From an uncultured Pseudomonadales bacterium (lineage in GTDB: Bacteria; Patescibacteriota; Microgenomatia; UBA1400; MFAQ01): a stretch of DNA of 64,000 bases. The translations under genes and the position numbers were made by a program. Shown here one piece after another: positions 19,127 to 60,150 of this stretch. The stretch lies in the NCBI GenBank assembly GCA_964439805.1, contig CAYTOI010000003.1, positions 36,844 to 100,843 on the forward strand. Reading direction: 5' to 3'. Numbering within the stretch: the stretch's first letter is position 1; every line of letters starts with the position of its first letter. Under the pieces are notes generated by a model. The model searched no databases and was not told the origin of the DNA. It saw only the letters and a program-made list of their open reading frames with translations.

Positions 19127-19150
19127 CCTGACATCTGAGATCTGAGAACT
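19127..19150. repeat. repeat family B copy (AGATCTG heptamer array), intergenic
   Basis: cctgacatctgagatctgagaactg. Confidence 0.6.
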
Positions 19151-19186
19151 GCAAACTTGCCCCAGGCGTGTTAAAATACTGGAGCT

Positions 19187-19540
19187 ATGAAACAGAATAT
19201 TCATCCTCAATACGAACAAATGGAAGTAAATTGTGCCTGCGGCAACAAATTTGTTGTTGGCGGAACCCGCAAAACACTTCACATCGACGTATGTGACAAA
19301 TGCCACCCTTTCTTTACTGGTACCCAAAAATTCATCGACGCTCTAGGTAGAGTAGACAAATTTATGGCCAAGAGAACTGCTGCTGCAGGATATGTAAAGA
19401 AGAACAAAAAAGGTTCTGATACTGTAGACTCCACTCCTAAGACACTCAAAGAAATGCTCGAGGCCAAAAAAGCCGCCGATGCTAAAGTGAAAAAAGAAGT
19501 TGTTGAAGCTGTCGAAGAAGCCACTCCAGCCACTGTCTAG
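19187..19540 (+). CDS. rpmE: 50S ribosomal protein L31 with Lys/Ala-rich C-terminal extension
   Basis: MKQNIHPQY, CxC...CxxCHPFFTG zinc ribbon; about 45 extra C-terminal residues. Confidence 0.85.
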   Translation: MKQNIHPQYEQMEVNCACGNKFVVGGTRKTLHIDVCDKCHPFFTGTQKFIDALGRVDKFMAKRTAAAGYVKKNKKGSDTVDSTPKTLKEMLEAKKAADAKVKKEVVEAVEEATPATV

Positions 19541-19570
19541 ATCCATTTAACCCCAAAAGACTCCCATTAC

Positions 19571-19600
19571 CTGACATCTGAGATCTGAAATCTGTGATCT
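19571..19600. repeat. repeat family B copy, intergenic
   Basis: ctgacatctgagatctgaaatctgtgatct. Confidence 0.6.
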
Positions 19601-19609
19601 AATAATATT

Positions 19610-20533
19610 ATGGACAACAATCCCTACATCCAAGCAGAAATTGAGCGTCTCAAGGCTGAAATAGCCTCAAACGAAGCCTTAATTGCAGACCCAGAACTAG
19701 GACCTCTTGCCGTGTCCGAAATCGAAAGGCTAAACCAAGCCATCAGCCAGCTTACCCAAACCAACACCCACGAAGAATCAGCCTCAGAATCAGAAAATTT
19801 CAACTCCGCACCTGCTATTATCGAAGTCCGAGGCGCAGCCGGTGGTGACGAATCAAAAATCTTCGCCGAGGATCTTCTCCGAATGTATACCCGCTTTGCC
19901 CAAAACCATGGCTTCTCCCTAGAATACCTAGACGACGACGTCATCAAAATTAGCCGACCAGATCGCACCCTATGGAATCATGGTGCTTATGAGACCTTCC
20001 AATACGAGTCTGGCGTTCACCGCGTCCAGAGAGTCCCAGAAACCGAGGCCCAAGGCAGAATCCACACTAGCACAGCTACAATTGCCGTATTGCCAGAGAT
20101 CAAGTCCAATCAGTATGAAGTTAAAGACCAAGACCTATCCTGGCAGTTTACTCGTGCAGGTGGACCAGGAGGCCAAAACGTCAATAAAGTAAACACTGCT
20201 GTTCGCCTTACCCACGTTCCCACAGGCGTTACCGTCTTTGTGCGTGAGGAACGATATCAAGCTAGAAACAAAGAAATTGCTCTAAACCTACTCAGATCCC
20301 GCCTCTGGCAAGCAGAAGAAGACAAAAGAATGGCCGCAATCTCTAGCCAGCGCGCAGAAGCAGTTGGGTCAGGATCACGCTCGGAAAAAATAAAAACCTA
20401 CAACTTCCCCCAAAACAGACTCACCGACCACAGACTAAACCAATCTTGGCACAATCTCAAAGATGTCATGGAAGGCGAACTCGAAGACGTCTTCGAAACA
20501 ACCCTATCCTTCTTCTCCCCTCCTCAACAATAA
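19610..20533 (+). CDS. prfA: peptide chain release factor 1
   Basis: GGQ motif (AGGPGGQNVNKV) and PET tripeptide (RVPETEAQGRIHTS) as in RF1. Confidence 0.9.
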   Translation: MDNNPYIQAEIERLKAEIASNEALIADPELGPLAVSEIERLNQAISQLTQTNTHEESASESENFNSAPAIIEVRGAAGGDESKIFAEDLLRMYTRFAQNHGFSLEYLDDDVIKISRPDRTLWNHGAYETFQYESGVHRVQRVPETEAQGRIHTSTATIAVLPEIKSNQYEVKDQDLSWQFTRAGGPGGQNVNKVNTAVRLTHVPTGVTVFVREERYQARNKEIALNLLRSRLWQAEEDKRMAAISSQRAEAVGSGSRSEKIKTYNFPQNRLTDHRLNQSWHNLKDVMEGELEDVFETTLSFFSPPQQ

Positions 20534-20627
20534 GGTCATTACAATATTTTTTTGGCTAAATAGCCAAAAACTGAACTTAATGCTAAAATAGCCATCGAAC
20601 GCAAATTTATAAGTTAAGGAGTTGTAC

Positions 20628-21522: not shown

Positions 21523-21530
21523 TTCTCCTC

Positions 21531-21571
21531 AAACCCAAAAGCCCTCGAATTCGAGGGCTTTTTCATATTTT
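21531..21571 (+). terminator. rho-independent terminator (paralogous to 22667-22714)
   Basis: aacccaaaagccctcgaattcgagggcttttt. Confidence 0.6.
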
Positions 21572-21640
21572 GACCACAAATCTACCAAAATGTGGTATAA
21601 TATAGGATATCCCAAATCGCAGTTTTAAAAGGAGCTAAAG

Positions 21641-22663: not shown

Positions 22664-22666
22664 CTC

Positions 22667-22714: not shown

Positions 22715-22725
22715 GATATAGTCAT

Positions 22726-22748
22726 CAATCCGCCTTTGGCGGATATTA
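22726..22748. repeat. conserved hairpin element caatccgcc-NNNN-ggcggatatta (copy 1)
   Basis: Nearly identical to 24241-24263; 7-bp stem atccgcc/ggcggat. Confidence 0.45.
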
Positions 22749-23963
22749 CTTGGGTTCTTGAGTTTTTGAGTTCTTCAGTTCTTTAAGTACTTCCAACGCC
22801 TTCTCCAACTGATTATCAGCCTTAGGATCTTTCTCATTATATTTAAACTCCACTTTCACATCTGGTTCAAGTCCATCACCATGAATATTTTTTCCAGAAG
22901 GAAGCAACCATTCAGCAATAGTAACGTGCAAAGATGAACCATCACCAATTTCTTGTGCTTCTTGTACAGTCCCTTTTCCAAAACTCTTCTCTCCTACTAG
23001 CTTAACCCCAAGTCTTTCTTTGAGCGCTCCAGCTAATATTTCTGACGCTGATGCAGAACCTTTGTTGATAAGTACTACAAGTGGCATACCAATTAGTTTT
23101 CCTTTGCGATCTACATTAAGAGACTCAGTCCCCTTTCTGTCTCGCTGAGAAACTATCACTCCATCACTTATAAACTCACTACCAAGGTCTACAGCTCTCT
23201 GTAGGTATCCACCAGGGTTATTTCGAACGTCTAGAATTACACCAGTAGCTTTTTTTGCTAGAATTTCTTTTACAAATCCTTCCCACTCTGGCAATGTTTT
23301 CTCTCCAAACTTGTTTACTCTTATTACGGCTACTTTGCCATTATCAATCCACTCAAGCTCTGTAGAAGGTACATTTATCATGTCGCGAACCAATGCAATC
23401 TCTTTACTTTGTTTTTCTTTTACTGAAAATATTGTAAGTTTCACGGTAGTCCCCTTTTCTCCTCGAATCAGATTAACTGCCTCCTCAAGACCAATTCCAG
23501 AAGTATCTTTCTTTACTCCCTTAGCCTCATCAACAATTTTCAAGATCAAATCCCCTGCCACAATCCCGGCTTTAGCTGCCGGACTGTCTTTGATAGGGCT
23601 CATAACCGCCAAAGTTTTCTCTACATACCCTAGCTGAATTCCGACACCACCAAATTCACCTTTAAGGTCTTCTTTTGATCTTGTATTTTCTACTGGTGGA
23701 AAAAAGGCAGTGTAAGGATCGCCCAAAGAAGCAGTCATTCCCTCAGCTGCCCCATACATGAGTTTTTTAGCGTCAATTGCTTCTGGCTTAAGATAGTCTT
23801 TCTTCAACCTCTCAAGGACATTATTCATGACCTTGGTGTTTACTTCACTAGGTACATTACTACTAGATAATAGCTGTCTCTCTTTATATACAGAGCCGCC
23901 TACAAACGACATTCCAGCAACAAAAATAACAACCAAAAAGTTACGAACGTTCTTCAAGTTCAT
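22746..23963 (-). CDS. ctpA: carboxyl-terminal processing protease (S41 family)
   Basis: PDZ plus S41 peptidase domain; N-terminal membrane anchor. The last 12 codons including the stop are built from a family-A repeat. Confidence 0.85.
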   Translation of the reverse strand: MNLKNVRNFLVVIFVAGMSFVGGSVYKERQLLSSSNVPSEVNTKVMNNVLERLKKDYLKPEAIDAKKLMYGAAEGMTASLGDPYTAFFPPVENTRSKEDLKGEFGGVGIQLGYVEKTLAVMSPIKDSPAAKAGIVAGDLILKIVDEAKGVKKDTSGIGLEEAVNLIRGEKGTTVKLTIFSVKEKQSKEIALVRDMINVPSTELEWIDNGKVAVIRVNKFGEKTLPEWEGFVKEILAKKATGVILDVRNNPGGYLQRAVDLGSEFISDGVIVSQRDRKGTESLNVDRKGKLIGMPLVVLINKGSASASEILAGALKERLGVKLVGEKSFGKGTVQEAQEIGDGSSLHVTIAEWLLPSGKNIHGDGLEPDVKVEFKYNEKDPKADNQLEKALEVLKELKNSKTQEPK

Positions 23964-25656: not shown

Positions 25657-26698
25657 CCCCTATCATGTATTCCACGACATCTCCGTCTTTCATCACATAT
25701 TCCTTTCCCTCCATCCCCACCTTGCCCTTCTCCGCCGCTTCCTTCCAACCACCTAGTGCCACAAAGTCATCATACTTACATACTTTGGCTTTTATAAACT
25801 TCTTTTCAAAATCAGTGTGAATTACTCCAGCTGCCTGAGGGGCTCTTGTTCCATCTGTTATCGTCCAAGCTCTAGTTTCGGTAACTCCAGTCGTCAAAAA
25901 GCTAATAAGACCTAAAGTTTCGTAAGCTTTACGAATCAATCTATCTAGCCCTGACTCATTTAATCCCATCTCAGCAAGAAACATTTCCGCTTCCTCCTCT
26001 GGCAAACTACTTATTTCCGCCTCTATCTTGGCAGAAACACACAAATCTCCTCCGCTCACTCTCAACCTAGCATCATTTTCACTCACATTAAACACTTTAA
26101 TCTCTTTCTTCGCAGTCAACATACACAAATCTTTCACCAGCTCCAGCTCATCAAAAGCCAAAATCTCCCTTGCGGGTTTATTTTCATTTAAACCAACCCA
26201 AAGTCTCTCAACTAATTCTTTTTTCTTTAACTGTCTTGGGTCCTTGAGTTCTGGAGTTCTAGAGTTCTTTACTTTATCTACTGTTTCCAAATCCTTAAGT
26301 ATCAGCTCAGTTTCTATTACTTCGTAGTCAGTTTTTGGATCAACACTCCCCTCTTTTACAATTTCTTTATCATTAAAGTCGCGCAAAACCTGAAGTATTA
26401 CGTCCACCTCTCTAATATGTGTCAAAAACTTGTTTCCAAGACCAGCTCCAGTAGCAGCTCCAGCTACAAGACCAGCAATATCTACAAACTCCACAGTAGC
26501 AGGAACAATTTTGACACTACTAGACATCTTAGCTAGCACCTCAAGACGCTTATCTGGAACCTCAACAATACCCACGTTCGGCTCAATGGTGGCAAAGGGA
26601 TAATTGGCTACCAAAGCTTGCTGCTTCTTTAGAAGCGCATTAAATAACGTCGATTTCCCGACGTTTGGCAACCCCACAATCCCTACTTTAAGTGACAT
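25652..26698 (-). CDS. ychF: ribosome-binding ATPase YchF (Obg-family GTPase)
   Basis: GIVGLPNVGKSTLFNAL P-loop; TGS-like C-terminus. In-frame family-A repeat (VKNSRTPELKDPRQ) in the central helical domain. Confidence 0.9.
   Translation of the reverse strand: MSLKVGIVGLPNVGKSTLFNALLKKQQALVANYPFATIEPNVGIVEVPDKRLEVLAKMSSSVKIVPATVEFVDIAGLVAGAATGAGLGNKFLTHIREVDVILQVLRDFNDKEIVKEGSVDPKTDYEVIETELILKDLETVDKVKNSRTPELKDPRQLKKKELVERLWVGLNENKPAREILAFDELELVKDLCMLTAKKEIKVFNVSENDARLRVSGGDLCVSAKIEAEISSLPEEEAEMFLAEMGLNESGLDRLIRKAYETLGLISFLTTGVTETRAWTITDGTRAPQAAGVIHTDFEKKFIKAKVCKYDDFVALGGWKEAAEKGKVGMEGKEYVMKDGDVVEYMIGA
26235..26270. repeat. repeat family A copy, in frame inside ychF
   Basis: tccttgagttctggagttctagagttcttt. 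Confidence 0.7.
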
Positions 26699-34870: not shown

Positions 34871-34891
34871 GGTACGATACTACCACATAAT

Positions 34892-36385
34892 ATGAAAAAT
34901 AATAATATGAAAAATATATTGAATTCATCGCTAAATTTTGTTAGAAATCTCACAAAATCTAAGGAGTTTATGACTCTAAACAAAACAGGCCTATATGCTT
35001 CCATATTAGCTTTTATCACCATCGTTGTTATGGGCATTGCTCTCCGCTACTTCGGACCATTTGGCAGAAACTCCATTTACGAATTCAAACCCACTCTTCC
35101 AAACACCGAAAGTTTTCTCTCACTAAACAAAACAGGTGACAAACTAGAACTTGGCGGACTCCTTCTCAAAAACAAAGTTACTCGATTCTCCCTAGATAAT
35201 CAAAAATATTTAAAAGACATCAAAGTTGCCCTCAACTACAAACCAGGTCAAAAGGAAATAAAAATTGGAGTCAGAGCAAACGAAACGGATCCTTTCATCT
35301 ACAAGTCTCTCTTCTTTGACCCTATCAATAGTCTTTCCTGGGCCAAGATTCAGTCAAATGGTATGACTTTGTTCCAAAAGACCAAACAATTCGACTCCAT
35401 CCCTGCATTCCTCAGTCAGCTAACTCCAGACAAAAAGGTCGGACTCTACCAAATAAATGTTAACGACCTCATTCCTTTCATATACCCTAATCTCAAACAA
35501 ACCAATACTGTCATCACTGCCCCTATCCGCGGCAATGCCACTATGTACGTCTTAGTTTCCAAAGGCGACTTAAACATCAAAGTCAGCAAACAAGACTTAA
35601 ACATGACCGACGGAGCCGACTCCCTCAGCCTTTCCTTGTCTCTTAATAATATAAAGGTTACCGAAGCCAATATCCCAGACGATGGCTTTGCCGACAGAAG
35701 CAAAAGCAAAACAGCTGCTCAGACAACCAGTCTCTCTGTACCAAAAGCCAAACCAGGTGTCTACAAGCTAGATATTAAGTTCGACAGTGCTGGCAACGAC
35801 GGCCTAATATCTAAGATTGAGGTCAACCAAGCCAAAGTAGTCTTTGGCGGCTCTGTACTAATCTGGAACGGTGCCCCAACCGCTTTCTACACCTTTGACC
35901 CAAAAATTGTTACTTCTACCTCTTGGGCTGATGCTATCCAAAACCTCAAAGTCGACGACAAAGCTGATCTAGCTATTAAAGACATCAAAAACAAATTCAA
36001 CTTTGATCTGGCCAAAACTATGAAGGGTAAACCAGCTGAAGAAATCTACAAAGTTTTCTCACCAAAAGGTAATATCAACTTCGGTACTGGTAGTTACTTC
36101 TCCTTCAACCCAGACACCTACTTCGATCCAAAAATAATTAAGGCTCAAGTGCTAAACACCAATAGTGTTCAAGCAGATATCGAAAAAAACCTAGACTTTA
36201 TCCTTACCACTCTAAACCCCAACAAGGAACAAGACTACTGGCTAATGTCCGAACTAAACTTTAACCCTGCAGACTTTCAGCTCAAGGGTGACAAAATCTT
36301 CTTCTCTCTAGAAGTACCAGATTTGGACAAGCAAGGCGGATCTCTAGAGCTAGGTGGACTTACAGTAACCCTTATTTCCAAATAA
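34892..36385 (+). CDS. hypothetical membrane-anchored extracytoplasmic protein (497 aa)
   Basis: N-terminal TM helix followed by a large beta-rich domain. Alternative start at the ATG at 34970 with an AAGGAG RBS. Confidence 0.4.
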   Translation: MKNNNMKNILNSSLNFVRNLTKSKEFMTLNKTGLYASILAFITIVVMGIALRYFGPFGRNSIYEFKPTLPNTESFLSLNKTGDKLELGGLLLKNKVTRFSLDNQKYLKDIKVALNYKPGQKEIKIGVRANETDPFIYKSLFFDPINSLSWAKIQSNGMTLFQKTKQFDSIPAFLSQLTPDKKVGLYQINVNDLIPFIYPNLKQTNTVITAPIRGNATMYVLVSKGDLNIKVSKQDLNMTDGADSLSLSLSLNNIKVTEANIPDDGFADRSKSKTAAQTTSLSVPKAKPGVYKLDIKFDSAGNDGLISKIEVNQAKVVFGGSVLIWNGAPTAFYTFDPKIVTSTSWADAIQNLKVDDKADLAIKDIKNKFNFDLAKTMKGKPAEEIYKVFSPKGNINFGTGSYFSFNPDTYFDPKIIKAQVLNTNSVQADIEKNLDFILTTLNPNKEQDYWLMSELNFNPADFQLKGDKIFFSLEVPDLDKQGGSLELGGLTVTLISK

Positions 36386-46300: not shown

Positions 46301-46906
46301 CATCCCTCGCCTGCCCTCAAAAGCTCTCAGAAGTGTCTGTCCATCAGCAAACTCTATGTCTGCTCCAGTCGGCAAACCTCTACCTATTCGGGTAACACTC
46401 ATACTACCAGCAAGACCCATGTCCTTAATTCTTTCTGCAATATACATAGCTGTCGCCTCCCCTTCCATATTTGGATTTGTAGCTAAAATAAGCTCTTCTA
46501 TCCCCCGTGTTTTAATTCTCGCTAGTAGCTGTGGAATTCTCAAATCATTAGGACCTATACCCGCCATAGGATTTATAATTCCACCCAAAACATGGTAAAC
46601 GCCTTTGTATCCCTCGGCTTTTTCAAAAGCCAAAAGGTCCAGTGCATTCTCCACTACACAAACTTGTTTTTTGCTTCTATTTGCGTCTTGGCAAACCGGG
46701 CAAAATTGTTCCTCACCCACATTAAAACAAAGTTCGCAAAACTTTGTATCTTTCTTTAATCGAGATAGTGATTCCCCAAATTTATCCAGCCTTTCTTGTG
46801 GCATATTCAACATGTAATAAGCCAAGCGGGCTGCCGACTTTGGCCCAATCCCTGGCAAGGCCTCAAAACCATCAATAACTTTCTGAACCGGACGAATACT
46901 TCTCAT
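46298..46906 (-). CDS. recR: recombination protein RecR
   Basis: C4 zinc finger (CELCFNVGEEQFCPVC), Toprim domain; 202 aa. Confidence 0.9.
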   Translation of the reverse strand: MRSIRPVQKVIDGFEALPGIGPKSAARLAYYMLNMPQERLDKFGESLSRLKKDTKFCELCFNVGEEQFCPVCQDANRSKKQVCVVENALDLLAFEKAEGYKGVYHVLGGIINPMAGIGPNDLRIPQLLARIKTRGIEELILATNPNMEGEATAMYIAERIKDMGLAGSMSVTRIGRGLPTGADIEFADGQTLLRAFEGRRGM

Positions 46907-47230: not shown

Positions 47231-47245
47231 ATTTTACCTCATTTT

Positions 47246-47316
47246 GAGTTTTTGCGTTTTTGCACTTTGAGTTTTATTTTCTTGAGTTCTTGATTTCTAG
47301 AGTTCTCGAGTTCTTA
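47246..47316. repeat. repeat family A, longest copy (about 9 degenerate octamer units), intergenic between dnaX and ybaB
   Basis: gagtttttgcgtttttgcactttgagttttattttcttgagttcttgatttctagagttctcgagttctt. Confidence 0.75.
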
Positions 47317-48831
47317 ACTAAATATCTTCTCCACATCCACCGCCACAGTATTCACATTCGCATCCTCCGAATTCGGCTCTGTCCTCGCCGGCATGTCTAT
47401 CAAAACCGTTTTCAATGTCACCGGTCCCCAAATTCTTTGCATTTCTTGTTCAATTATTTTTTTCTTTGTATCCCTCTCAATCATGTCTTGCTGAAAACGC
47501 GACTTTACTGACAAGGTCAAAGACTTTCCTTGCAAATCCATAGGTGCCGAGTTTCTTAGCATTCCAGCAAGAGACCCATTACTTGCTGCAAAATTATCCA
47601 AAAATCCTCCCCATTCTTCTTTTATTTTTTCTATCGATGCTTTCATATCAGCTACGCTCTCTAGAGAAACTACTTTATCAACTTCTTTTTTTTCTTCTAT
47701 CACTACTGGAATTTCCTCTACAGGTGCAGGACGAACTACAGTTTCAACCTTCCTTTCAATTGCTGGTGCTTTAGCCGGCTCTACTTCTTTCGGCACCCCA
47801 CCACCACTATTATTGATAGAACTAGACAAAATTGCCATCTCCAAAGGCAGTAACGGATCTGGAGATATTTTTATTTTCTCTGCCGAGCTGACTAGCCCAT
47901 CAACCAAAGCAATTAAACTGCGAACATTTGCCCCACTTTTTACCGATATTTCAATTTGAGATTTTAGATACGTAAGCATCGCTACCAAAACCACTTGAGC
48001 CTTTACCCCATTACTTTCCATAATCATAAAGCTCTCCACAACCTCAGAAGATTTTCCAGACAATGCCGCCTCAATCACTTTTTTGACCAAGACATTACTT
48101 ACCGATCCCAGGTTCTTATTTACCAAATCCCTGTCGATATCCACCCCAAAGCTAGCCAGCTGTTCCAGCACCTTGTGGGCTTCCCGGAAACTCCCGTCCG
48201 CCACCTCTGTAATGGCCTCCAAGGCCTCCATATCGGCTTTCAGCTTCTCTCCTGCAACTACACGCATCAGAGACTCTACCATCTCGGATTTGGTCGCTTT
48301 GGTGAAGTTTATCTTTGAGCACCTGCTGACTATAGTCTCAGGCACCTTGTGAGCCTCTGTTGTACAGAGAATAAACATGGCGTGCTTAGGAGGTTCTTCT
48401 AGGGTTTTAAGAAGTGCATTAAACCCAGCAGTAGACACCATGTGAACTTCATCGATAATATAAATTTTCTTTCTAAGCTGTAGCGGAGAAAGGCGAACTT
48501 TGTCTCTCAAATCTCTAATGTCTTCCACTAGTCCATTACTTGCCGCATCAATTTCTATTACATCTACACCACTTCCATGAATCAGAGATTTGCATGGTTC
48601 ACAAACCCCACATGGTTCATGCAACTCACTCACCAAATCTTTATTAAGATCACAATTGACAACTTGCGAAAGGATTCTCGCCGTACTAGTTTTCCCAGAT
48701 CCGCGAGGACCCACAAACAGATACGCATGAGACACTTTTCCACTTTTCAAAGCAGCCTCCAAAGCACCACGAACCGACAACAAATTCAGCTCTGCAATTT
48801 TTTGGGGTCGATACTTTTGGTAATAACTCAC
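47314..48831 (-). CDS. dnaX: DNA polymerase III subunit gamma/tau
   Basis: Walker A GPRGSGKTSTARIL; zinc module CGVCEPC; clamp-loader boxes. Confidence 0.9.
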   Translation of the reverse strand: MSYYQKYRPQKIAELNLLSVRGALEAALKSGKVSHAYLFVGPRGSGKTSTARILSQVVNCDLNKDLVSELHEPCGVCEPCKSLIHGSGVDVIEIDAASNGLVEDIRDLRDKVRLSPLQLRKKIYIIDEVHMVSTAGFNALLKTLEEPPKHAMFILCTTEAHKVPETIVSRCSKINFTKATKSEMVESLMRVVAGEKLKADMEALEAITEVADGSFREAHKVLEQLASFGVDIDRDLVNKNLGSVSNVLVKKVIEAALSGKSSEVVESFMIMESNGVKAQVVLVAMLTYLKSQIEISVKSGANVRSLIALVDGLVSSAEKIKISPDPLLPLEMAILSSSINNSGGGVPKEVEPAKAPAIERKVETVVRPAPVEEIPVVIEEKKEVDKVVSLESVADMKASIEKIKEEWGGFLDNFAASNGSLAGMLRNSAPMDLQGKSLTLSVKSRFQQDMIERDTKKKIIEQEMQRIWGPVTLKTVLIDMPARTEPNSEDANVNTVAVDVEKIFS

Positions 48832-50420: not shown

Positions 50421-50457
50421 TCTTGAGTTTTTGAGTTCTTGATTCTTTGAGTTCTTT
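50421..50457. repeat. repeat family A copy (intergenic)
   Basis: tcttgagtttttgagttcttgattctttgagttcttt. Confidence 0.7.
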
Positions 50458-52564: not shown

Positions 52565-52885
52565 ATGCTAACCAAAACTGACTTAGCCCAAATTAAAGAT
52601 CTGCTTAAAGACCTTCCTACCAAAAAAGAAGTTAAAAAAGAAATTGAATCATCAATTATCGATAATAATAAGCGCATGGCTAAAATTTTTGTGACCAAGC
52701 AAGACCTAGAATGCCTTGTTTCCAAAGATGAATACCACAAGGCTGTGGATCAAATACTCACAACTCTGGATGGTATCTACGGAATCGTCAAAAACTTTGA
52801 TCAAGAAAATCTTATTACTTCCCACAAGCTTAGTGATCACGATATAAGAATCTCCAAAATTGAGAAAAGCATCTTCGCCAACTAA
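52565..52885 (+). CDS. hypothetical protein (106 aa)
   Basis: ORF followed 3 nt later by repeat family C copy. Confidence 0.4.
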   Translation: MLTKTDLAQIKDLLKDLPTKKEVKKEIESSIIDNNKRMAKIFVTKQDLECLVSKDEYHKAVDQILTTLDGIYGIVKNFDQENLITSHKLSDHDIRISKIEKSIFAN

Positions 52886-52887
52886 CC

Positions 52888-52952
52888 GTCATTGCACGAA
52901 ACACAGCAGTGCTGATTCCGACTCACTGTCGGGAAACAACCGCAGCAATCTC
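52888..52952 (+). repeat. repeat family C copy 3
   Basis: gtcattgcacgaaacacagcagtgctgattccgactcactgtcgggaaacaaccgcagcaatctc; compensatory change in the hairpin relative to copy 1. Confidence 0.5.
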
Positions 52953-53007
52953 ATCACAAATAGTTCCTCTTTATAGACACAAATAGCCTCAGCAAATGTC
53001 AAGTTAT

Positions 53008-53016
53008 AGGATAAAT
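53008..53016 (+). promoter_or_regulatory. extended -10 element TGgTATAAT
   Basis: tggtataataccc, 50 nt upstream of the 53067 ORF. Confidence 0.4.
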
Positions 53017-53066
53017 GTGGTATAATACCCCAAAGTTCTTTCCAAACCTAAAAACAGGAGATTATC

Positions 53067-53894
53067 ATGAAATTCGTATCCAACTTCTTCCGCCACCTTC
53101 TAAATATTCCCAATGACATCGACTTCTTCTGGTGGCTCAAAGACAAACAGGACACTCCAGCCATGCAAACCATCGGATACCTTGTCTTTTTTGTAGGTAT
53201 TTCCCTGGCTTTTAAAGATATTCGTGCAGGTTTTGCCTTTATGATCGCTACCGGCTTACACGAAGTGGGTCATTTGTATCAGTTTCTCAAATACGGCATA
53301 GATTCTCACTTTCGAGTAATCCTTCCATTTGGGTTCGCCGCTGCACCAAAAACCAAATATGAAAACAAAAGATCCGACTTGCTACACTGGTGGAAAATTG
53401 CAAACATTTTGCAAGCTGGCCCAATTGTAAACACAATTCTCCTTGCCATAGGTGTATTTATGGTCAAGCAAGGATTATTTGTAGAATTTGCAAAATATCT
53501 GGTCTATATGAATGGTGTCCTGTGCATCTTCAACATGCTCCCTTTTGGCATGATGGATGGTGGACAGTTCTTCATAACCATCTTTTCATCAATGAAGAAA
53601 CAATTTGATATTCTGTTAGCATCCGTAGTAAGCATTGCTGTTTTAATTGCAACCATAGAAATAACCATGCCTTACTGGTCACACGGAGGTTGGGGTATTG
53701 CCTATGGATTGTGGCAGGCAAAAGGATGGTGGATATTTGCTTTTCTCTTTGCCATCGGTACAGCCCACAAACAGGGCATGGACAACGATGAATATTGGAA
53801 AAGCGCCCAAGCTATGTCTCCAATCCAAATTTTCATTCAGTTGGCAATATATGCTGTCAATATATCGGCAGCTCTCTGGCTCTTCTCAATTTAA
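53067..53894 (+). CDS. peptidase M50-like membrane metalloprotease
   Basis: LHEVGHLYQF HExxH inside a TM helix; 6 TM segments; terminator at 53897-53935. Confidence 0.55.
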   Translation: MKFVSNFFRHLLNIPNDIDFFWWLKDKQDTPAMQTIGYLVFFVGISLAFKDIRAGFAFMIATGLHEVGHLYQFLKYGIDSHFRVILPFGFAAAPKTKYENKRSDLLHWWKIANILQAGPIVNTILLAIGVFMVKQGLFVEFAKYLVYMNGVLCIFNMLPFGMMDGGQFFITIFSSMKKQFDILLASVVSIAVLIATIEITMPYWSHGGWGIAYGLWQAKGWWIFAFLFAIGTAHKQGMDNDEYWKSAQAMSPIQIFIQLAIYAVNISAALWLFSI

Positions 53895-53961
53895 TACAAA
53901 ACAGCCCCGTAAATCGGGGCTGTTTTTCGTTATTTCGAGTTTTTGATTTATTGAGTTTTTA

Positions 53962-54414
53962 TTATTTCACTCCTAGTTTAAACCTAGCAAATCTCATTAC
54001 TCGGATGTTTTCACCAGTTTTACCAATTAGCTCTTTGACTAATTGTTCCATTGTCTTACTTCCATCTCGGATATAAGCCATAGCCATAAGATCTTCTACT
54101 GTTTCTGGGTTCATAGAACAGATTTGCATAGCAATTTCTTTGCAAAGTTCAGAAAACTCTGGGTTATTGGCCACAAAGTCTGTTTCACAAGCTACTTCTA
54201 CCATGGCAGCAGCCACACCACCATTGTGGGTGTAACAAAAAACTTTGCCACTGTTTACTTCACGGTCAGATTTACTTTCCGCCTTGGCCAAACCCTTGGC
54301 TCTAATAATCTCAATAGCTTTTTGCAAGTCGCCTTTGGTTTCATCCAAAGCATTCTTAGCTGCCATTACTCCAGCACCAGTAATCTCTCTTAATTCCTTG
54401 ATTTTGTCTAACAT
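53962..54414 (-). CDS. tsf: translation elongation factor Ts (short form)
   Basis: UBA-like N-terminus LREITGAGVMAAKNALDETKGDLQKAIE; 150 aa, single dimerisation subdomain. Confidence 0.85.
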   Translation of the reverse strand: MLDKIKELREITGAGVMAAKNALDETKGDLQKAIEIIRAKGLAKAESKSDREVNSGKVFCYTHNGGVAAAMVEVACETDFVANNPEFSELCKEIAMQICSMNPETVEDLMAMAYIRDGSKTMEQLVKELIGKTGENIRVMRFARFKLGVK

Positions 54415-54415
54415 G

Positions 54416-55408
54416 TTATTTTGATTTTAAATTTTTTAATCCGGTTTCTAATGCTCTGCCTAGTTCTCCAATAACAATTTCCAAGCCTTTAGCTGAGTCA
54501 TCATTCATAGGAATAACATAATCTACTTTATCAGGGTTTGCGTTAGAGTCTACCAAACCAATTACAGTAACACCTTTACTGTGAGCTTCTTTTACAACCA
54601 ACTTTTCTTTGTGTGTGTCTATTACCACAACCACTTCTGGAGCTTCTTTGAGGGTAGAAATACCACCGACAATTCTCTCAAGTCGAGAAATTTCTTTATC
54701 AAAAAGAATTTGTTCCTTTTTGGTATATTTCTTAAGATTTCCTTCTTCTTTGTCTTTTTTAAGCTTGTTCAATCGATCTATGGTTAGTTTTACTTGTTTC
54801 CAGTTGGTAATCAGTCCACCCATCCAGCGTTGGGTAATAAAAGGTACTCCAAGTCTTCTGGCTTCATCTTCTACCATTTGTTTGGCCTGTCTCTTGGTTC
54901 CTACTATTACAATTCTCTTGCCTGTACTGGCCAAAGTGGAAAGTGTCTTGCAAGCTTCTTCTAAACCTTTTACAGTTTGTTCCAAATCAAAGATGTGAAT
55001 TCCGTTCATAGAACCCCAAAGGTAACCTTTCATTTTTGGATTCCATTTTTTAACTACGTGTCCGTAGTGAGCACCAGCTTCAAAAAGCTCTTCTACGGTT
55101 ACCTTACTTCCTGCAACTCGAGGAGTCTTGACTACTTCTGGAGCTACTTCGACAGCAACTTCTGGGGTTACTTCTGCAACTACATCAGCCACAACTTCTA
55201 CTGGCTCAACAGCCACGACAGCTTCTTTTTTAACTACTTTCTTAGGGGTTTTTGCAACAGCCTTTTCGGCGACTACAGCTTTTTTACTTACACTTTTAAC
55301 TTTTTCTGTCTTGAGTTCTTGAGTTTTTGAGTTCTCGAGTTCTTTAACAGCCTTCTTAACTACTTTTTTGGGAGCTTTTTCCTCCACTGTTTTTGCGGCT
55401 TTAGCCAT
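54416..55408 (-). CDS. rpsB: 30S ribosomal protein S2 with ~95-aa low-complexity N-terminal extension
   Basis: S2 core from VEELFEAGAHYGH onward; A/V/E/K-rich N-terminal extension containing an in-frame family-A repeat. Confidence 0.9.
   Translation of the reverse strand: MAKAAKTVEEKAPKKVVKKAVKELENSKTQELKTEKVKSVSKKAVVAEKAVAKTPKKVVKKEAVVAVEPVEVVADVVAEVTPEVAVEVAPEVVKTPRVAGSKVTVEELFEAGAHYGHVVKKWNPKMKGYLWGSMNGIHIFDLEQTVKGLEEACKTLSTLASTGKRIVIVGTKRQAKQMVEDEARRLGVPFITQRWMGGLITNWKQVKLTIDRLNKLKKDKEEGNLKKYTKKEQILFDKEISRLERIVGGISTLKEAPEVVVVIDTHKEKLVVKEAHSKGVTVIGLVDSNANPDKVDYVIPMNDDSAKGLEIVIGELGRALETGLKNLKSK
55309..55345. repeat. repeat family A copy, in frame in the rpsB N-terminal extension
   Basis: tcttgagttcttgagtttttgagttctcgagttcttt. 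Confidence 0.75.
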
Positions 55409-55583
55409 ATTTTTTATCTCTTTTTAACTCACTAGACTCTTATTAAGAGATTCGTCTAGGAGCAAATTATTAATATTTAACTTCAATATTCTACCACAAA
55501 CCAGCCTCAAGACCCAATTCAATACTTGCAACCTGTAACATAAAGACTTATAATATCCCAAAATCATAATTCGGAGGAATTAC

Positions 55584-55898
55584 ATGAACAACTTATGTCC
55601 TGAAGGAATGCAGAATTTTTTCATAATCGTCCTTGCCTTAGGCACAACCGGAATGCAACTTGGCTGGCTACTTGGCTACTTTTTGTTCAAAAAAGCACCA
55701 AGTTGGTCAAGATACAGACATGGCCATATCTACCTTTGCGCTATAGGTGGCGGAGGGATTATTACTATTCTGTCGGGAGCTCTTTTTAACACATGCTCAT
55801 CATTTGACTCAATTTCCATCATTACTGTGCTAATACTTGTTGTCGCAGTACCACTTCTCATCTCATATTTCAAAAATGACTGGAACCAAACCGAGTAA
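55584..55898 (+). CDS. hypothetical membrane protein (104 aa)
   Basis: 3 TM segments; terminator follows. Confidence 0.35.
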   Translation: MNNLCPEGMQNFFIIVLALGTTGMQLGWLLGYFLFKKAPSWSRYRHGHIYLCAIGGGGIITILSGALFNTCSSFDSISIITVLILVVAVPLLISYFKNDWNQTE

Positions 55899-55908
55899 AT
55901 CATTACCA

Positions 55909-55940
55909 AGCCTTGCAGCCAAAAGTTGCAAGGCTTTTTT
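55909..55940 (+). terminator. rho-independent terminator (copy 1 of a repeated terminator)
   Basis: agccttgcagccaaaagttgcaaggcttttttat. Confidence 0.6.
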
Positions 55941-56013
55941 ATGCCTTGACTTATAGTTTTTTAAATCTTATAATACGCCAGAAATCCATTCGCTCGTTTA
56001 AAAGGAGTTTTGC

Positions 56014-56406
56014 ATGACCATTATCAATAAAGTTGTGTTTGTAAAACAAATAATTGAAATTCTGAGGAACAACCTGTCTTGTGACTTTGGTGATTACAGC
56101 GATAGACGTGTGTCAAATATCGAGGAGATCTATGATCTCGATATGTTTTCCGCTTTGGAACCACTCAAAGAATTCAAACTTGTGAAATTCTTCATTTTTT
56201 CATTACAAGAAAGGCCTCGCTCCCGCAAGTTATTTACTGTTCATTTGATTTACCCAGCAAATTTCGCGCAATCAAAGCCATCTCAAGTAGAACTTCATTG
56301 TCATGGACTAGACCTTGAAGAAAAGTCCAAAATCATTGATCAACTGCTCACAGAAGCGGGCTTCCATGTCGTTACCTATCTTCAATCCACCGAAGAGTTG
56401 GTATAA
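56014..56406 (+). CDS. hypothetical protein (130 aa)
   Basis: RBS AAAGGAG; the same terminator type downstream. Confidence 0.35.
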   Translation: MTIINKVVFVKQIIEILRNNLSCDFGDYSDRRVSNIEEIYDLDMFSALEPLKEFKLVKFFIFSLQERPRSRKLFTVHLIYPANFAQSKPSQVELHCHGLDLEEKSKIIDQLLTEAGFHVVTYLQSTEELV

Positions 56407-56453
56407 CCCACCCAAAGGATAAGAAAAAACACTGTAGTCTTCTAAAAACCCTA

Positions 56454-56485
56454 GCCTTGCAGCAAAAAGTTGCAAGGCTTTTTTT
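56454..56485 (+). terminator. rho-independent terminator (copy 2, nearly identical to 55909-55940)
   Basis: agccttgcagcaaaaagttgcaaggcttttttt. Confidence 0.6.
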
Positions 56486-56486
56486 G

Positions 56487-57251
56487 TTAAATCTCTGCCA
56501 AGTTTTCGTACAGACCCACTACTGTCAACGGACCAACACCATTTGGCACTGGAGTAATCAAACTGGCTTTCAAACCTGCCTCTTTTGAAATATCTCCTTT
56601 GGGATAACCTAAATCTATTCCTATATATCCATCTGTCACCATATCTTCGGTAATCAATCCCTCAACTCCAGTAGTACTTATAATTACATCAAACTCTTTC
56701 AGTCTACTGAGATCATCTCCTTTATCAAAACCCTCAAAAGGTAGTCTCAAAACATTAAGTCTCTCCCCTATTCTTTTTCCAACCATTCCATTTGACCCTA
56801 CCAAAGCAATCTTCTGATCATCATCAATATTAAAACTTTCCACAACTCTCTCCACAGCTCTAACTGCAGCAGGTAAAAATTTACTCTGAGGATTCAATCC
56901 ATCCACATCTTTACTTGGTTTTATCATTCCCAAAATCTCCGCCCTACTGACATCTGATATCTGAGATCCGAGATCTAATATTGGCAACTGAATCAATATC
57001 CCGTCCACAGTGACATCTTCATTCATATCAATTAGCATATTTTTCAAGTCTTCCACATCGTGGGCAAAAATAACATGAACCAAAACTCCAAGCCTCTCCC
57101 CCATCTCGGTTTTTAGCTTTACATACTGACTCATCTCAGTTTTGCCATCACATTGAAAAATCACCAAACTTTTACCCAAAAGTTTCTCACTTTCTTCCAA
57201 AAATGTCGCAATCTTTTCTGCCTCTTTTTTTCCATTAAATACAATATTCAT
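56487..57251 (-). CDS. folD: bifunctional methylenetetrahydrofolate dehydrogenase/cyclohydrolase (short form)
   Basis: KDVDGLNP and ITPVPNGVGPLTV motifs. In-frame family-B heptamer repeat (GSQISDVS). Confidence 0.8.
   Translation of the reverse strand: MNIVFNGKKEAEKIATFLEESEKLLGKSLVIFQCDGKTEMSQYVKLKTEMGERLGVLVHVIFAHDVEDLKNMLIDMNEDVTVDGILIQLPILDLGSQISDVSRAEILGMIKPSKDVDGLNPQSKFLPAAVRAVERVVESFNIDDDQKIALVGSNGMVGKRIGERLNVLRLPFEGFDKGDDLSRLKEFDVIISTTGVEGLITEDMVTDGYIGIDLGYPKGDISKEAGLKASLITPVPNGVGPLTVVGLYENLAEI
56947..56978. repeat. repeat family B copy, in frame inside folD
   Basis: ctgacatctgatatctgagatccgagatctaa. Confidence 0.65.
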
Positions 57252-57365
57252 CTGACTATTTTAACTCACCATCCATTGCAAATCACCTATAAGCCTATAG
57301 CTAGCATTTATGGCTCTTATTTGCTATAATCACCCAAAATCGAACTTTAATTGGAGGCAAAAACG

Positions 57366-57974
57366 GTGAACGAATTTTTTGAAAGAAATCCAGGGCTAAA
57401 AACGCCAGGAATCGTGCTTGGAATCATAATTACCCTGGTGCTACTTGGCTGGGGAATCAATCGTATTTGGTATTGGAACTTTGACACCGAATCAAGGCCA
57501 GGGAAAGTAGTAAGTGTCTCCTGGCAAATGGATGTCAATGAATACTACTGGAAATCAGTTAGCCACAGTGACTGGCATGAAAGTGTCCCAGACAACGCAC
57601 ATAACGAATGGTGCTATAACAAGTCAAGAACAATATCAGTCACCCGCGAAGATGGTACCAGTGAAAATATTACATACATTGATACCTATTGTGAATACTA
57701 CCTCGACGAGTGGGTTTACCAACAAACCTATCGAAGAACTGGTACGGACAAAAACCCGGTTTATGTTGAATACCCGGAAAATACTTCAACGGTAGAATAT
57801 CGGGAAGTACCCGGTGTATTTACTGTCACTTTCAGCTCAGTGGAGTATGTACGCGGGCAATTTAGCTTCAATTACGACCGACAAACCTGGGATAAATTTC
57901 AAACCGGAATGAGAGTAACAGTCGGGGTTAACAAAAAAGGAAAAGTCCCGTTTCGCCCCGAGCTACCAAGGTAA
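57366..57974 (+). CDS. hypothetical membrane-anchored protein
   Basis: GTG start with GGAGG RBS 8 nt upstream; -10 tgctataat at 57322; N-terminal TM helix; Trp/Tyr-rich. Confidence 0.4.
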   Translation: MNEFFERNPGLKTPGIVLGIIITLVLLGWGINRIWYWNFDTESRPGKVVSVSWQMDVNEYYWKSVSHSDWHESVPDNAHNEWCYNKSRTISVTREDGTSENITYIDTYCEYYLDEWVYQQTYRRTGTDKNPVYVEYPENTSTVEYREVPGVFTVTFSSVEYVRGQFSFNYDRQTWDKFQTGMRVTVGVNKKGKVPFRPELPR

Positions 57975-58021
57975 CAACATCAAATCTCCACAATATCCGT
58001 GGAGATTTTTTTATTGAACAT

Positions 58022-58612
58022 CTACCACCTATTGCAAATCACCTCCAAAACTCTCTCATGAACCTGTTCTGGCGTGCCTTCGGCCTCAACGACCTCCCAC
58101 CCAAACTCCCTTGCCAGTTCTCTGTGGATTTCCCTATTTCTCTCCCACGTTCCCTCAGCAGACGACTCAAACCTGTGCCCAGACTCAATCCCGCTGCTAA
58201 ACCTTTCCCCATCCAGCAGTATCGAGACATCTGGCACCAAGAGGTCAGAGTTTATCTCATATAAATAAGACCTTGAAACCCCCTTAGTAAGCCCCCAAGC
58301 TATCCCTGTGCCCAAATAGTCTTCGGCAAAAACGTCACCATCCTTGAGCATCTCCAGGAGGCAAGGCTCATATTCACGCCTGTCTTGTGCGTAGACCGTT
58401 TGCAGTTCGAGCTCGCTTAGGATTCTCTCTTCTGGCGCTCCCCGCAGCTCCCTATTGATAATTATTCCAGTAGGAGTGTCATACCTAGGATACTTAATGC
58501 GAAAATACGGCCTTTCTAGCTCTCTCCAGGTTTCTTCCAACAAGTCTAGCTGCTTGGATTTACCCAAATTATTTGCCGCATAAACAACAACAAACTTACC
58601 TCTGCTGGACAT
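58022..58612 (-). CDS. thymidylate-kinase-like P-loop kinase (divergent Walker A)
   Basis: KFVVVYAANNLGKSKQ resembles the Tmk P-loop; EDYLGTGIAWG resembles the DRY/LID region; PDVSILLDGE resembles Tmk PDLTLYLDV. Locally higher GC. Confidence 0.45.
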   Translation of the reverse strand: MSSRGKFVVVYAANNLGKSKQLDLLEETWRELERPYFRIKYPRYDTPTGIIINRELRGAPEERILSELELQTVYAQDRREYEPCLLEMLKDGDVFAEDYLGTGIAWGLTKGVSRSYLYEINSDLLVPDVSILLDGERFSSGIESGHRFESSAEGTWERNREIHRELAREFGWEVVEAEGTPEQVHERVLEVICNRW

Positions 58613-58769
58613 CCTCTTTTTTCACCTTTCCCAGCTTTTTAAGTTCTTCCACAATATCAGCAGGAAGTTCAGCCTGAGGATCTTTTATATACATCCTGTA
58701 TTCTTTCAAAATATCTTCGTAAGATTGTGGTTCAACCCTGTTTTCTGGCCAATAGTTTTTTTCAGTCAT
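58596..58769 (-). CDS. small ORF (57 aa) overlapping the start of the kinase-like gene
   Basis: ATG at 58769 to TAA at 58596; overlaps the downstream ATG out of frame; below the ORF-track cutoff. Confidence 0.25.
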   Translation of the reverse strand: MTEKNYWPENRVEPQSYEDILKEYRMYIKDPQAELPADIVEELKKLGKVKKEDVQQR

Positions 58770-58814
58770 AACTACAAACTTAAACCATATCTCAACGATT
58801 GTCCATCCTTATTT

Positions 58815-58840
58815 TGAGTTTTTGATTTTTTGAGTTTTTT
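58815..58840. repeat. repeat family A copy
   Basis: gagtttttgatttttgagtttttt, directly 3' of the Nramp gene. Confidence 0.6.
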
Positions 58841-60150
58841 CACTTCCCCCAATTCCAAAACATCAAAAGCACCGACAGTGCCATAAACACAAAAGTAATC
58901 CAAGCAATTACCAAATATTTTTTCTCAGTTTTAAACTTCCCCACCACGTCTTCCCTACCAGCAAGCTTAATGATTATAAAAATAAGCGGCACAGCCACTA
59001 CACCATTTACCACAGCCGCATAATACAATGCCTGCATAGTATTAATTCCAAACAAATTCATAAAAACGCCTACCATAGTAGCCACTGCCAAAATCAAATA
59101 AAATCCCTTTGCGGAACTAAACTTTTTATTCAACCCCTCCTTAATACCCAGCGCTTCTGAAACTGCATAAGCTACCGACCCAGCCAACACTGGAACAGAC
59201 TGCAAGCCTATACCAATAATTCCAAAAGCAAACAATAGATAGGCAAATTCTCCAGCAAGAGGTCTGAGGGCGAGAGCTGCTTGCTCCGCACTTTGTATTT
59301 CAAAAATTCCATTTGCATGCAAAGTCCCTGCAGTAGTAACCACAATAAAAAAAGTCATCAAGTTGGAAAACAACATTCCCACCTTCGTATCCAACCTCAT
59401 CTTTTTAATTTCACTCATATTTACCACCGGCTTTTGTCCGAAATCCGATATCTGATATCTGACATCTGAGATCTCTTCCTCCACTTCTTGTGAAGCTTGC
59501 CAAAAAAATAAATATGGCGAAATTGTCGTCCCCAAAAATCCCACTAAAGTCATAATGTAGTCTGTACTCCAATCAATTCTGGGAACCAGAGTCACTTTCA
59601 AAATCTCTAGCCAGTCAGGGTGAATCATAAAAGCCGTAATCACATAAACTACTAACGAAAGACCAAGCCACTTCAGCACTTCAGAATATTTTTTGTACGG
59701 TACCCAAATCTCCAAAACCACCACAAACATGGCAACCAGAAATAGCCAAAAGATAAAGTTCAGCCCAAAAACCATTTGCAATGACGAAGCCATAATCCCC
59801 AGATCAGCTCCAATATTTACAATATTTGCAAATGCGAGAAGTGATACAGCAAACCACATTACTCTTTTGGAACTAAACTTTTTAAGAATTCCAGCTAAAC
59901 CTCTCCCTGTAGTCATCCCTACTCTGCCACACATCTCTTGAATAGATATCATGGCTGGCAGCAAAAACAGAGCAAGCCATGTCATCCCAAAACCAAACTT
60001 TGCCCCAGCAATAGAATAAGTAGCTATTCCGCTCGGATCATCATCTGCCGCGCCGGTGACAAAACCTGGACCAACTCTTTTTACAAACTTTTTAAAAAAT
60101 ACCGGAAACTTCATTAATCTAATAATACACAAAAAAGACCCTATCACCAA
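58840..60150 (-). CDS. mntH: Nramp-family divalent metal cation transporter (MntH-like)
   Basis: GPGFVTGAADDDPSGIATYSIAGAKFGFGMTWLALFLLPAMISIQEMCGRVGMTTGRGLAG matches the Nramp N-terminal consensus; 11 TM segments. In-frame family-B repeat. Confidence 0.85.
   Translation of the reverse strand: MVIGSFLCIIRLMKFPVFFKKFVKRVGPGFVTGAADDDPSGIATYSIAGAKFGFGMTWLALFLLPAMISIQEMCGRVGMTTGRGLAGILKKFSSKRVMWFAVSLLAFANIVNIGADLGIMASSLQMVFGLNFIFWLFLVAMFVVVLEIWVPYKKYSEVLKWLGLSLVVYVITAFMIHPDWLEILKVTLVPRIDWSTDYIMTLVGFLGTTISPYLFFWQASQEVEEEISDVRYQISDFGQKPVVNMSEIKKMRLDTKVGMLFSNLMTFFIVVTTAGTLHANGIFEIQSAEQAALALRPLAGEFAYLLFAFGIIGIGLQSVPVLAGSVAYAVSEALGIKEGLNKKFSSAKGFYLILAVATMVGVFMNLFGINTMQALYYAAVVNGVVAVPLIFIIIKLAGREDVVGKFKTEKKYLVIAWITFVFMALSVLLMFWNWGK
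59445..59475. repeat. repeat family B copy, in frame inside the Nramp gene
   Basis: ccgatatctgatatctgacatctgagatctc. Confidence 0.65.

Follow-up and report, generated by a model that had tools for sequence, protein, structure and literature searches.

Why should the same short tandem repeats lie between genes and also, in frame, inside essential genes of one bacterial genome? This question is raised by a 64,000-nt stretch of contig CAYTOI010000003.1 (the window, i.e. the whole stretch of DNA analysed here), which carries arrays of the heptamer ATCTGAN on either side of rpmE and within the genes of FolD and an Nramp-family transporter, together with a second family of arrays built from the octamer TCTTGAGT. 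A sequence-only reading of the window had reported two intergenic heptamer arrays around rpmE, one in folD and one in the Nramp gene; we located all four, each on the + strand, and its translations of the folD and Nramp copies match ours. The arrays are to be seen as elements of the DNA itself, rather than as motifs of protein or RNA, and belong to the genomes of Collierbacteria-like and related Microgenomates. The explanation that we favour, and to which we give an even chance of being correct, is a lineage-specific dispersed short-tandem-repeat family, comparable to the short tandemly repeated repetitive (STRR) sequences of cyanobacteria, which spreads by copying or recombination, is remodelled by slippage and passes through a filter of selection.

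By the homologs of its FolD, Nramp and release factor RF1, the window belongs to Candidatus Collierbacteria or to Microgenomates close to them, within the Candidate Phyla Radiation (CPR), and Pfam assignments were obtained for FolD, Nramp, ribosomal protein L31 and RF1. Positions 52676-61594 are 100% identical in an independent Logan assembly from the same run, and proteins from the ends of the window matched only short Logan fragments of that sample. The GC content of the window is ∼39%, and GC skew is negative in every 4-kb bin (−0.07 to −0.30), even where + strand genes dominate. Since the skew is negative throughout the window, the − strand was taken as the leading strand, and we take the C-rich strand of the arrays to be the lagging strand. 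An Rfam covariance-model search of the window gave a tRNA at 12650-12732 as its sole match and matched none of the arrays, and a known RNA family was rejected on this ground. A 474-aa open reading frame (ORF) on the − strand (11324-12748), which has no Pfam match, overlaps this + strand tRNA gene and is probably not a real gene.

Two repeat families on one strand

All four heptamer arrays consist of tandem 7-nt units, as in dispersed heptameric simple-sequence repeat families, with four to six units per array once decayed edge units are counted (three or four had been reported), and the 'cctgac' that had been described as a prefix is indeed present but is the degenerate first unit rather than a separate element. 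Array 1 (19126-19153, +; four units, ACCTGAC ATCTGAG ATCTGAG AACTGCA) is intergenic, with a terminator-like hairpin (19076-19103) on one side and the extended −10 of rpmE (TGTTAAAAT, 19170-19177) on the other. Array 2 (19569-19603, +; five units, ACCTGAC ATCTGAG ATCTGAA ATCTGTG ATCTAAT) occupies the spacer between rpmE and prfA, and its final units overlap the extended −10 of prfA (TGATCTAAT); arrays 1 and 2 thus stand on either side of rpmE (19187-19540, +), whose product is L31 with a C-terminal extension of ∼50 aa rich in Lys, Glu and Ala. Array 3 (56945-56979, +; five units, TACTGAC ATCTGAT ATCTGAG ATCCGAG ATCTAAT) is antisense within folD (56487-57251, −; 254 aa) and codes for about residues 91-102 (LDLGSQISDVS; translation context LDLGSQISDVSRAE). 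Array 4 (59436-59477, +; six units, GTCCGAA ATCCGAT ATCTGAT ATCTGAC ATCTGAG ATCTCTT) is antisense within the Nramp gene (58840-60114, −), where it codes for EISDVRYQISDFG (translation context EEEISDVRYQISDFGQ).

The heptamer arrays are far from what chance would produce. The two-unit pattern ATCTGRNATCTGR has five matches in 64 kb, all on the + strand, against an expectation of 0.05, and at least five matches were found in 0 of 100 shuffles; CTGACATCTGA occurs four times on + and not at all on − in the window. The unit is the hexamer ATCTGA plus one free base, positions 1-6 being conserved at 80-100% and position 7 being near random (G7, T6, C4, A3), and such a conserved six with a free seventh base would not be expected from neutral decay or simple slippage. 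Single ATCTGA hexamers in the window number 23 on + and 10 on −, with ∼12 of the 23 inside arrays. The same heptamer unit is also present in relatives of the window (the comparison loci L309, L310, L001 and L130).

The octamer family is larger, with ∼13 arrays in the window, all on the + strand, and two-unit matches with up to three mismatches were found 40 times on + and never on −. Within − strand genes, octamer arrays lie in the gene of an RluA-type pseudouridine synthase (7788-7819), at the C-terminal end of an S41 peptidase gene (22748-22779), in the gene of the GTPase YchF (26234-26273), twice in the cysteinyl-tRNA synthetase (CysRS) gene (39358-39389 and 39553-39592), in rpsB (55309-55340) and in topA (63653-63692). 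Others mark gene boundaries, namely the stop codon of dnaX (−; 47280-47319), a position 3 nt downstream of the stop of a HIT-family gene (−; 50421-50452) and, as a TTTTGAGT variant, the stretch adjoining the Nramp stop codon (58812-58839). Moreover, one array is intergenic (17312-17343), 20 nt upstream of a + strand EamA gene and with its last unit at a −35-like position, and a weak one of 2.8 units (47242-47263) lies 11 nt upstream of the start of a − strand gene. The rpsB array sits within an N-terminal extension of ∼107 aa of ribosomal protein S2 (54416-55408). Two further tandem duplications in the window, at 34887-34916 (15 nt × 2, 100% identity) and 46334-46382 (∼25 nt × 2, 84%), are unrelated to either family.

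The two families had been called unrelated, yet they have a common GAG-N-TCT core, which becomes apparent when the units are written from GAG (GAGATCT for the heptamer, GAGTTCTT for the octamer), and they use the same chromosome strand and the same protein sites. A mechanism or constraint common to both, as had been suggested, is borne out by these features, the common sites being folD site 2 and the RluA-type gene; the 'family A' of that reading is the octamer TCTTGAGT. The two units also behave alike when they are translated. Read on the + strand, either unit gives TGA in all three frames, while its complement, NTCAGAT for the heptamer and ACTCAAGA for the octamer, is free of stops in every frame (CTC AGA TCT CAG ATC TCA GAT; ACT CAA GAA CTC AAG AAC TCA AGA). 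It is this stop-free opposite strand, and not the number of units, that preserves the reading frame, and selection for multiples of three units is not supported. Two of the four heptamer arrays and ∼8-9 of the 13 octamer arrays are inside genes, where they give rise to recurrent peptides (SQISDVR from heptamers, TQELKNSR from octamers); the arrays as a whole are located in variable loops, termini or spacers.

Altogether, the 17 arrays of both families are on the + strand, i.e. the C-rich strand, whatever the orientation of the gene. Ten in-gene arrays are in − strand genes and none is clearly in a + strand gene in either orientation (P = 0.004); by a greedy ORF set, coding DNA amounts to 23.9 kb on + and 32.8 kb on − (42% on +). 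The six intergenic arrays all have the same orientation. Because TGA occurs in every frame of the array strand, arrays are found in leading-strand genes, or in lagging-strand genes in which the in-frame stop has been mutated. Examples of the latter come from other loci. In L017 (Shapirobacteria) three arrays lie in a − strand gene, and a fourth (6834-6860), which has the same orientation on the chromosome, falls within a + strand gene and has its single in-frame TGA changed to TGT. Likewise, a part of L130 that is not syntenic with the window has an array (17233-17262) inside a lagging-strand gene of the metallo-beta-lactamase fold, with the in-frame TGA changed to CAA. Local skew at both loci is consistent with orientation along the C-rich strand, and the CPR loci examined all have ATCTGAN on the C-rich strand except L074, which has an inverted pair.

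Stop avoidance alone, or a gene-relative rule as in Xanthomonas, was considered as the source of this orientation. Both are contradicted by the array at 47242, which precedes a − strand gene, by an array in L310 (844-879) that lies 7 nt downstream of a + strand gene, and by the L017 and L130 loci, where lagging-strand genes contain arrays with repaired stops. As a side observation, a + strand hypothetical protein gene has octamer-like periodicity in its signal-peptide region (16576-16640, TTTTGAGT-type units), and in its orthologs in L309, L310 and L311 the hydrophobic core contains an unusual Glu; the region may be an array in the polar orientation that was overwritten into a lagging-strand gene.

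Array sites in relatives and in other lineages

The same protein sites carry different units in different lineages. At folD site 2, which hosts array 3, heptamers code for SQISDVS in the window, P0003, P0006 and P0008, while octamers code for ELKNSKTQELK in P0002, P0004, P0005 and P0012. Similarly, the RluA-type gene has octamers in the window and heptamers in L311, and the octamer at the orthologous TopA site varies by lineage between TTTTGAGT and TCTTGAGT. A sister lineage, represented by L128 and L311, has GATCGTA (as read on the sense strand) as its unit instead, and this is so at the two folD sites, in the Nramp gene, at an intergenic position, between rpmE and prfA and in the RluA-type gene. 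This unit puts a sense-strand TAG once per 21 nt, and exactly that codon is TTG or TCG in each coding array. The consistent mutation of TAG in the coding arrays thus points to a pressure on the DNA sequence against which selection on the protein works.

Composites of 16-32 nt, with their units in the same order, recur across unrelated genes. The 16-mer CTGACATCTGAGATCT is found in the same order at three loci, and the 32-mer TCTTGAGT TCTTGATT CCTTGAGT TCTTGAGT is identical in the RluA-type and CysRS genes, where all 32 nt of 7788-7819 equal those of 39358-39389. The junction TTGATTCCTTGAG occurs at six sites in three genes (RluA-type, CysRS and TopA) and in three lineages.

The coding copies had been thought of as 21-nt insertions of three heptamers, but net length changes relative to array-less alleles are 0, +6 or +12 nt. 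At site 2, the majority of FolD orthologs from Microgenomates lack 4 aa, and the structure 3p2o in the PDB has a gap of 6 aa exactly under LGSQIS. In Nramp, most orthologs read EEEIAE--KKIKDF where the array allele reads EEEISDVRSQISDF, a gain of 2 aa, and the array partly overwrites or reuses the ancestral codons I-x-D...I-x-D-F. A second folD site, site 1, carries a heptamer array in L001, L125 and L128 with zero length change. Array-coded residues are missing from most orthologs. More or less decayed array alleles are present in relatives with ∼71-90% identity of the Nramp protein and in one 59%-identical FolD. The coding copies are ancient, have been inherited with decay across Collierbacteria and are not recent insertions. 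Target-site duplications, which an insertion might have left, were not seen in filled-versus-empty comparisons of the relatives.

Array alleles also appear to have moved between backgrounds. The L001 folD allele combines a window-like backbone with a ∼75-nt patch, in which the site-1 array and diverged flanks are common to L125 and L128, and all four combinations of site-1 and site-2 states exist. Together with the replacements and absences of arrays, this patch and these combinations point to short-patch recombination. Array 1 is kept with point changes in L309 and L310 and is absent from L311 and L312, in which the spacer is ∼40 nt shorter; array 2 is identical in L309, and the 7-nt periodicity persists with other units at the same position in L311 and L312. 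The place of array 2 in the rpmE-prfA spacer of L310 (about 9885-9995) is taken by a ∼125-nt element with terminal inverted repeats, and in L126 (about 11340-11480) and L128 a ∼130-nt element of this kind replaces the octamer array after the Nramp stop. The termini of the ∼125-130-nt element are GTCATTGCGAGG ... CCTCGCAATGAC. Arrays may be a preferred target of this element, or the element may be an alternative occupant of the same spacers. An IS200-type Y1 transposase was rejected as the mobiliser of the arrays, since one copy was found, in L309 only, and it is absent from the window and the other loci. That copy (L309 1956-2375, 139 aa) has hairpin-bearing flanks and is inserted beside a tRNA gene.

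The number of units is the same in the window, L309 and L310, of which the RF1 (PrfA) proteins are 97% identical, and the differences are point changes only. Elsewhere it changes, though only now and then: the non-coding array at 58812 is one unit longer in L002 than in the window, and the TopA array has 10.6 units in L002 and 4.6 in the window. A GC-rich peptide motif, PAGRQ or PARPAGG, was observed in or beside array-coded segments of topA in L126 and L130 and of FolD in P0010 (e.g. KTLPAGRQVKNSKTQ, IKTMPAGRQDSRTQ), and may be a further small insert nested in arrays.

Beyond these relatives, a FolD-based metagenome scan gave a single 1-kb locus. A scan of a genome collection gave, among the matches listed, (ATCTGAN)n of 3-39 units in Acidobacteriota, Planctomycetota, Bacteroidota, Verrucomicrobiota and CPR. 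In viral contigs, 92 stretches of ATCTGAN were counted, and the control permutations ACTTGAN (61) and AGTCTAN (25) were only 1.5-3.7 times rarer. We therefore rejected ATCTGAN as a uniquely universal motif, and the breadth across phyla reflects the general abundance of heptamer repeats. Outside CPR, again among the matches listed, the arrays are intergenic and mostly inverted pairs, and their orientation is unlinked to GC skew (16 vs 15). These non-CPR pairs, among the same matches, have the arrangement (NTCAGAT)n-spacer-(ATCTGAN)n in 32 cases and the opposite one in a single case. Their spacers are 5-350 nt and not conserved, and the pairs are found in every gene-orientation context (Acidobacteriota, Planctomycetota, Bacteroidota and others; within L005-L124, e.g. 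L005 3027-3105, L008 6636-6702, L043 2043-2124 and L058 4408-4519). CPR loci also contain heptamer arrays of 4-5 units with other units (ATTAGAA, TAATTTC, TATCATC and AGTCGTT), located in L017 (1750-1781), L035 (2511-2541), L047 (2624-2684) and L074 (5340-5372), so that several heptamer families seem to coexist per CPR genome.

Candidate origins of the arrays

Under the favoured explanation, the arrays would spread and be homogenised by copying of tracts of ∼16-32 nt, the candidate routes being ectopic gene conversion from one array to another and homologous recombination of short patches from strain to strain. Replication slippage would let arrays grow and shrink, selection would retain only in-frame, stop-free copies in permissive loops, and a replication-linked asymmetry in the generation or upkeep of arrays would fix their orientation. 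Several points weigh against this explanation. Tracts of ∼30 bp are near the lower limit of RecA-dependent recombination, which makes ectopic conversion harder to accept. The strict strand polarity is a further difficulty, as hairpin asymmetry fails as its cause; the data as a whole come from ∼64 kb and mostly syntenic relatives, with no locus of the opposite replichore among them. The free position 7, the long retention at the same sites and the lineage-wide switch of the unit, which has lasted in spite of the in-frame stops it creates, look more like sequence-specific recognition or drive than neutral dynamics. Besides, the comparable repeats of Xanthomonas show no leading/lagging bias and are ∼90% intergenic (PMC4692102).

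Two simple causes of the polarity were tried and rejected. Hairpin asymmetry, by analogy with CTG/CAG instability, fails since both array strands give minimum free energies of 0 to −2.5 kcal/mol, no better than shuffles, and no stem was found on either strand. The idea of a primase site (CTG or CTA within the unit) is a misfit, as the CTG-bearing strand is the leading-strand template.

Collierbacteria-like and related Microgenomates may have a sequence-specific, replication-polar process, either a polar signal with a conserved machine or a templated or biased conversion drive, that would write and maintain tandem units of 7-8 nt at permissive sites throughout the genome, essential genes among them, and would switch the unit across a lineage even where in-frame stops arise that selection has to remove; we regard such a process as rather unlikely. 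A functional replication-polar signal like Chi (RecBCD/AddAB) or the FtsK orienting polar sequences and SpoIIIE recognition sequences (KOPS/SRS; FtsK/SpoIIIE), in which copies accrue by substitution at permissive sites and dialects arise as the unit co-evolves with the reading protein, would account for the 100% co-directional arrays over 64 kb and in independent CPR loci, for the density of about one array per 4 kb in coding and non-coding DNA, and for six conserved unit positions beside a free one. It would also fit arrays that arise with little or no length change, sites kept in relatives (∼71-90% Nramp identity; one 59%-identical FolD) and a unit that switches lineage-wide even where in-frame stops result. 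Chi and KOPS motifs are 5-8-mers on the leading strand. However, they are not tandem, ATCTGA outside the arrays is about equal on both strands and shows no skew, one genome has two unit families, individual arrays are dispensable (absent, or replaced by the terminal-inverted-repeat element in relatives), and in other phyla the same heptamer forms inverted pairs unlinked to skew, so that we consider this signal unlikely. The short recombination patches that move arrays between backgrounds, the four-gamete combinations, the origin by substitution with little length change, the lineage-specific dialects and the permissive protein sites would suit an analogue of uptake signal sequences or DNA uptake sequences (USS/DUS) under molecular drive, in which DNA is preferentially taken up by competence and then replaces short patches. 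Competence systems are common in CPR bacteria, and CTG/TCTGAA is part of the DUS core; but the USS/DUS that are known occur as single motifs on both strands and have no replication polarity, and the arrays are less dense than the one per kb or so that is typical for USS/DUS, which leaves the uptake route, in our judgement, quite improbable.

Similar doubt applies to a role as tandem −35-like boxes, i.e. −35 or upstream elements for leaderless + strand genes and antisense promoters in − strand genes, which we think has little chance of being the answer. The octamer TCTTGAGT and the heptamer junction aTCTGACAt do resemble the sigma-70 −35 consensus TCTTGACAt, and CTGACA equals TTGACA at 5/6 positions, but, with rotations and strands allowed for, such resemblance of an 8-mer is expected by chance in an estimated ∼7% of cases. 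The intergenic copies that precede + strand genes (eamA, rpmE and prfA) all end, in each of the three cases, near the −35 of an extended −10, and the 7-nt periodicity upstream of prfA is kept in L311 and L312 with different units; the spacers are so short, however, that an upstream array could hardly lie anywhere but near −35. A promoter scan was not enriched (6 matches vs 4.6 expected from shuffles), a promoter role is speculative for the 13/17 arrays inside or at the 3′ ends of − strand genes, and the chromosome-wide polarity is left unexplained. Finally, each array could be an ordinary microsatellite that arose independently by local slippage, with no copying between loci and only coincidental similarity of units. 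Heptamer repeats of arbitrary unit are common in the viral-contig scans, other heptamer units are present in CPR loci, and an excess of heptamers among long simple-sequence repeats is attributed to Mrazek 2007 where it is cited in PMC4692102. Yet four heptamer and ∼13 octamer loci of two units in 64 kb, where other tandem-repeat calls are at chance level, the identical ordered 16-32-nt composites at unrelated loci, the 40:0 octamer orientation and the lineage-wide unit change make this origin very improbable indeed; moreover, since position 7 varies within arrays, neighbouring units resemble each other no more than distant units do.

In the spacers concerned, the extended −10 boxes of rpmE (TGTTAAAAT, 19170-19189), prfA (TGATCTAAT, 19595-19612) and EamA (TATCAT, 17353-17367) end ∼7 nt before the start, which suggests leaderless or near-leaderless transcripts of these three genes, and the layout of the rpmE promoter is the same in L311 and L312.

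Whichever process maintains the arrays, they imply a DNA-level force strong enough to reshape loops of FolD, TopA, CysRS, RpsB and DnaX, and they introduce spurious insertions into alignments of CPR proteins. Should the polarity flip at the origin and terminus, minimal genomes would possess in these arrays a new class of sequence oriented by replication, which would also serve as a practical marker of replichore structure for CPR metagenome bins.

Relation to known systems

Our literature search found no paper combining Collierbacteria with tandem repeats, and the arrays are best placed by comparison with systems described elsewhere. Like Chi, KOPS and SRS, they have units of 7-8 nt, are co-oriented with presumed replication, occur in genes and spacers at kilobase spacing and are lineage-specific; those motifs, however, are single copies that are skewed everywhere, whereas units outside the arrays have no skew here. 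With USS/DUS they have in common the permissive coding positions without length change, the lineage dialects and the short recombination patches, but USS/DUS are not tandem and not replication-polar, are much denser and have proven uptake specificity.

Borg repeats and contingency repeats are likewise tandem repeats within ORFs; the segments that they contribute are short and hydrophilic or disordered, and slippage alters them. Borg repeats are local and of independent origin, with in-ORF unit lengths divisible by three, while contingency repeats differ in unit number from one close strain to the next and shift the reading frame or the promoter spacing. In the present case, in contrast, one and the same unit, of 7 or 8 nt, is found at dispersed loci, and, unlike in phase-variable contingency loci, relatives with 97% identical RF1 have nearly the same number of units.

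Tolerance of dispersed repeats within genes has a precedent in the Rickettsia palindromic elements (RPE), selfish repeats that lie in frame within protein-coding genes (PMC10969869). In both cases dispersed repeats are tolerated in frame in unrelated housekeeping genes of a reduced genome and give a recurrent peptide. RPE are ∼150 bp, palindromic and similar to MITEs (miniature transposable elements with inverted repeats), whereas the arrays are 28-42 nt, non-palindromic and internally tandem, and unlike RPE or MITEs they have no terminal inverted repeats or target duplication and partly overwrite the sequence rather than simply insert into it.

Dispersed heptamer repeats have been known since the cyanobacterial STRR sequences of Calothrix and Anabaena, which are dispersed and heptameric. 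To these the CPR case adds an absolute one-strand orientation that is independent of gene direction, protein sites that host heptamer, octamer or variant-unit arrays according to lineage, and a unit change at the orthologous arrays of one lineage that forces escape mutations at in-frame stops. Heterogeneous heptamer repeats are likewise dispersed in Xanthomonas (GGGAATC) and Nostoc (GGGGA(C/T)T) (PMC4692102). The likeness of the STRR and Xanthomonas families to the present arrays extends to tandem heptamers, typically ∼4 per array, to one unit that is dispersed in many copies through a genome, and to heterogeneous unit positions ((GGGANTN)n there, (ATCTGAN)n here), copies near gene ends and lineage-specific units. 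The known families are nevertheless mostly confined to intergenic DNA (∼90%), whereas half of the heptamer and most of the octamer arrays are inside essential genes; the repeats of Xanthomonas and Nostoc are G-rich and form G-quadruplexes, whereas ATCTGAN has no G-tract and is unstructured; and the absence of leading/lagging bias in Xanthomonas contrasts with the strict strand polarity of the window. Further differences from the STRR and Xanthomonas families are the parallel octamer family on the same sites and the CPR host, both of which belong to the present case.

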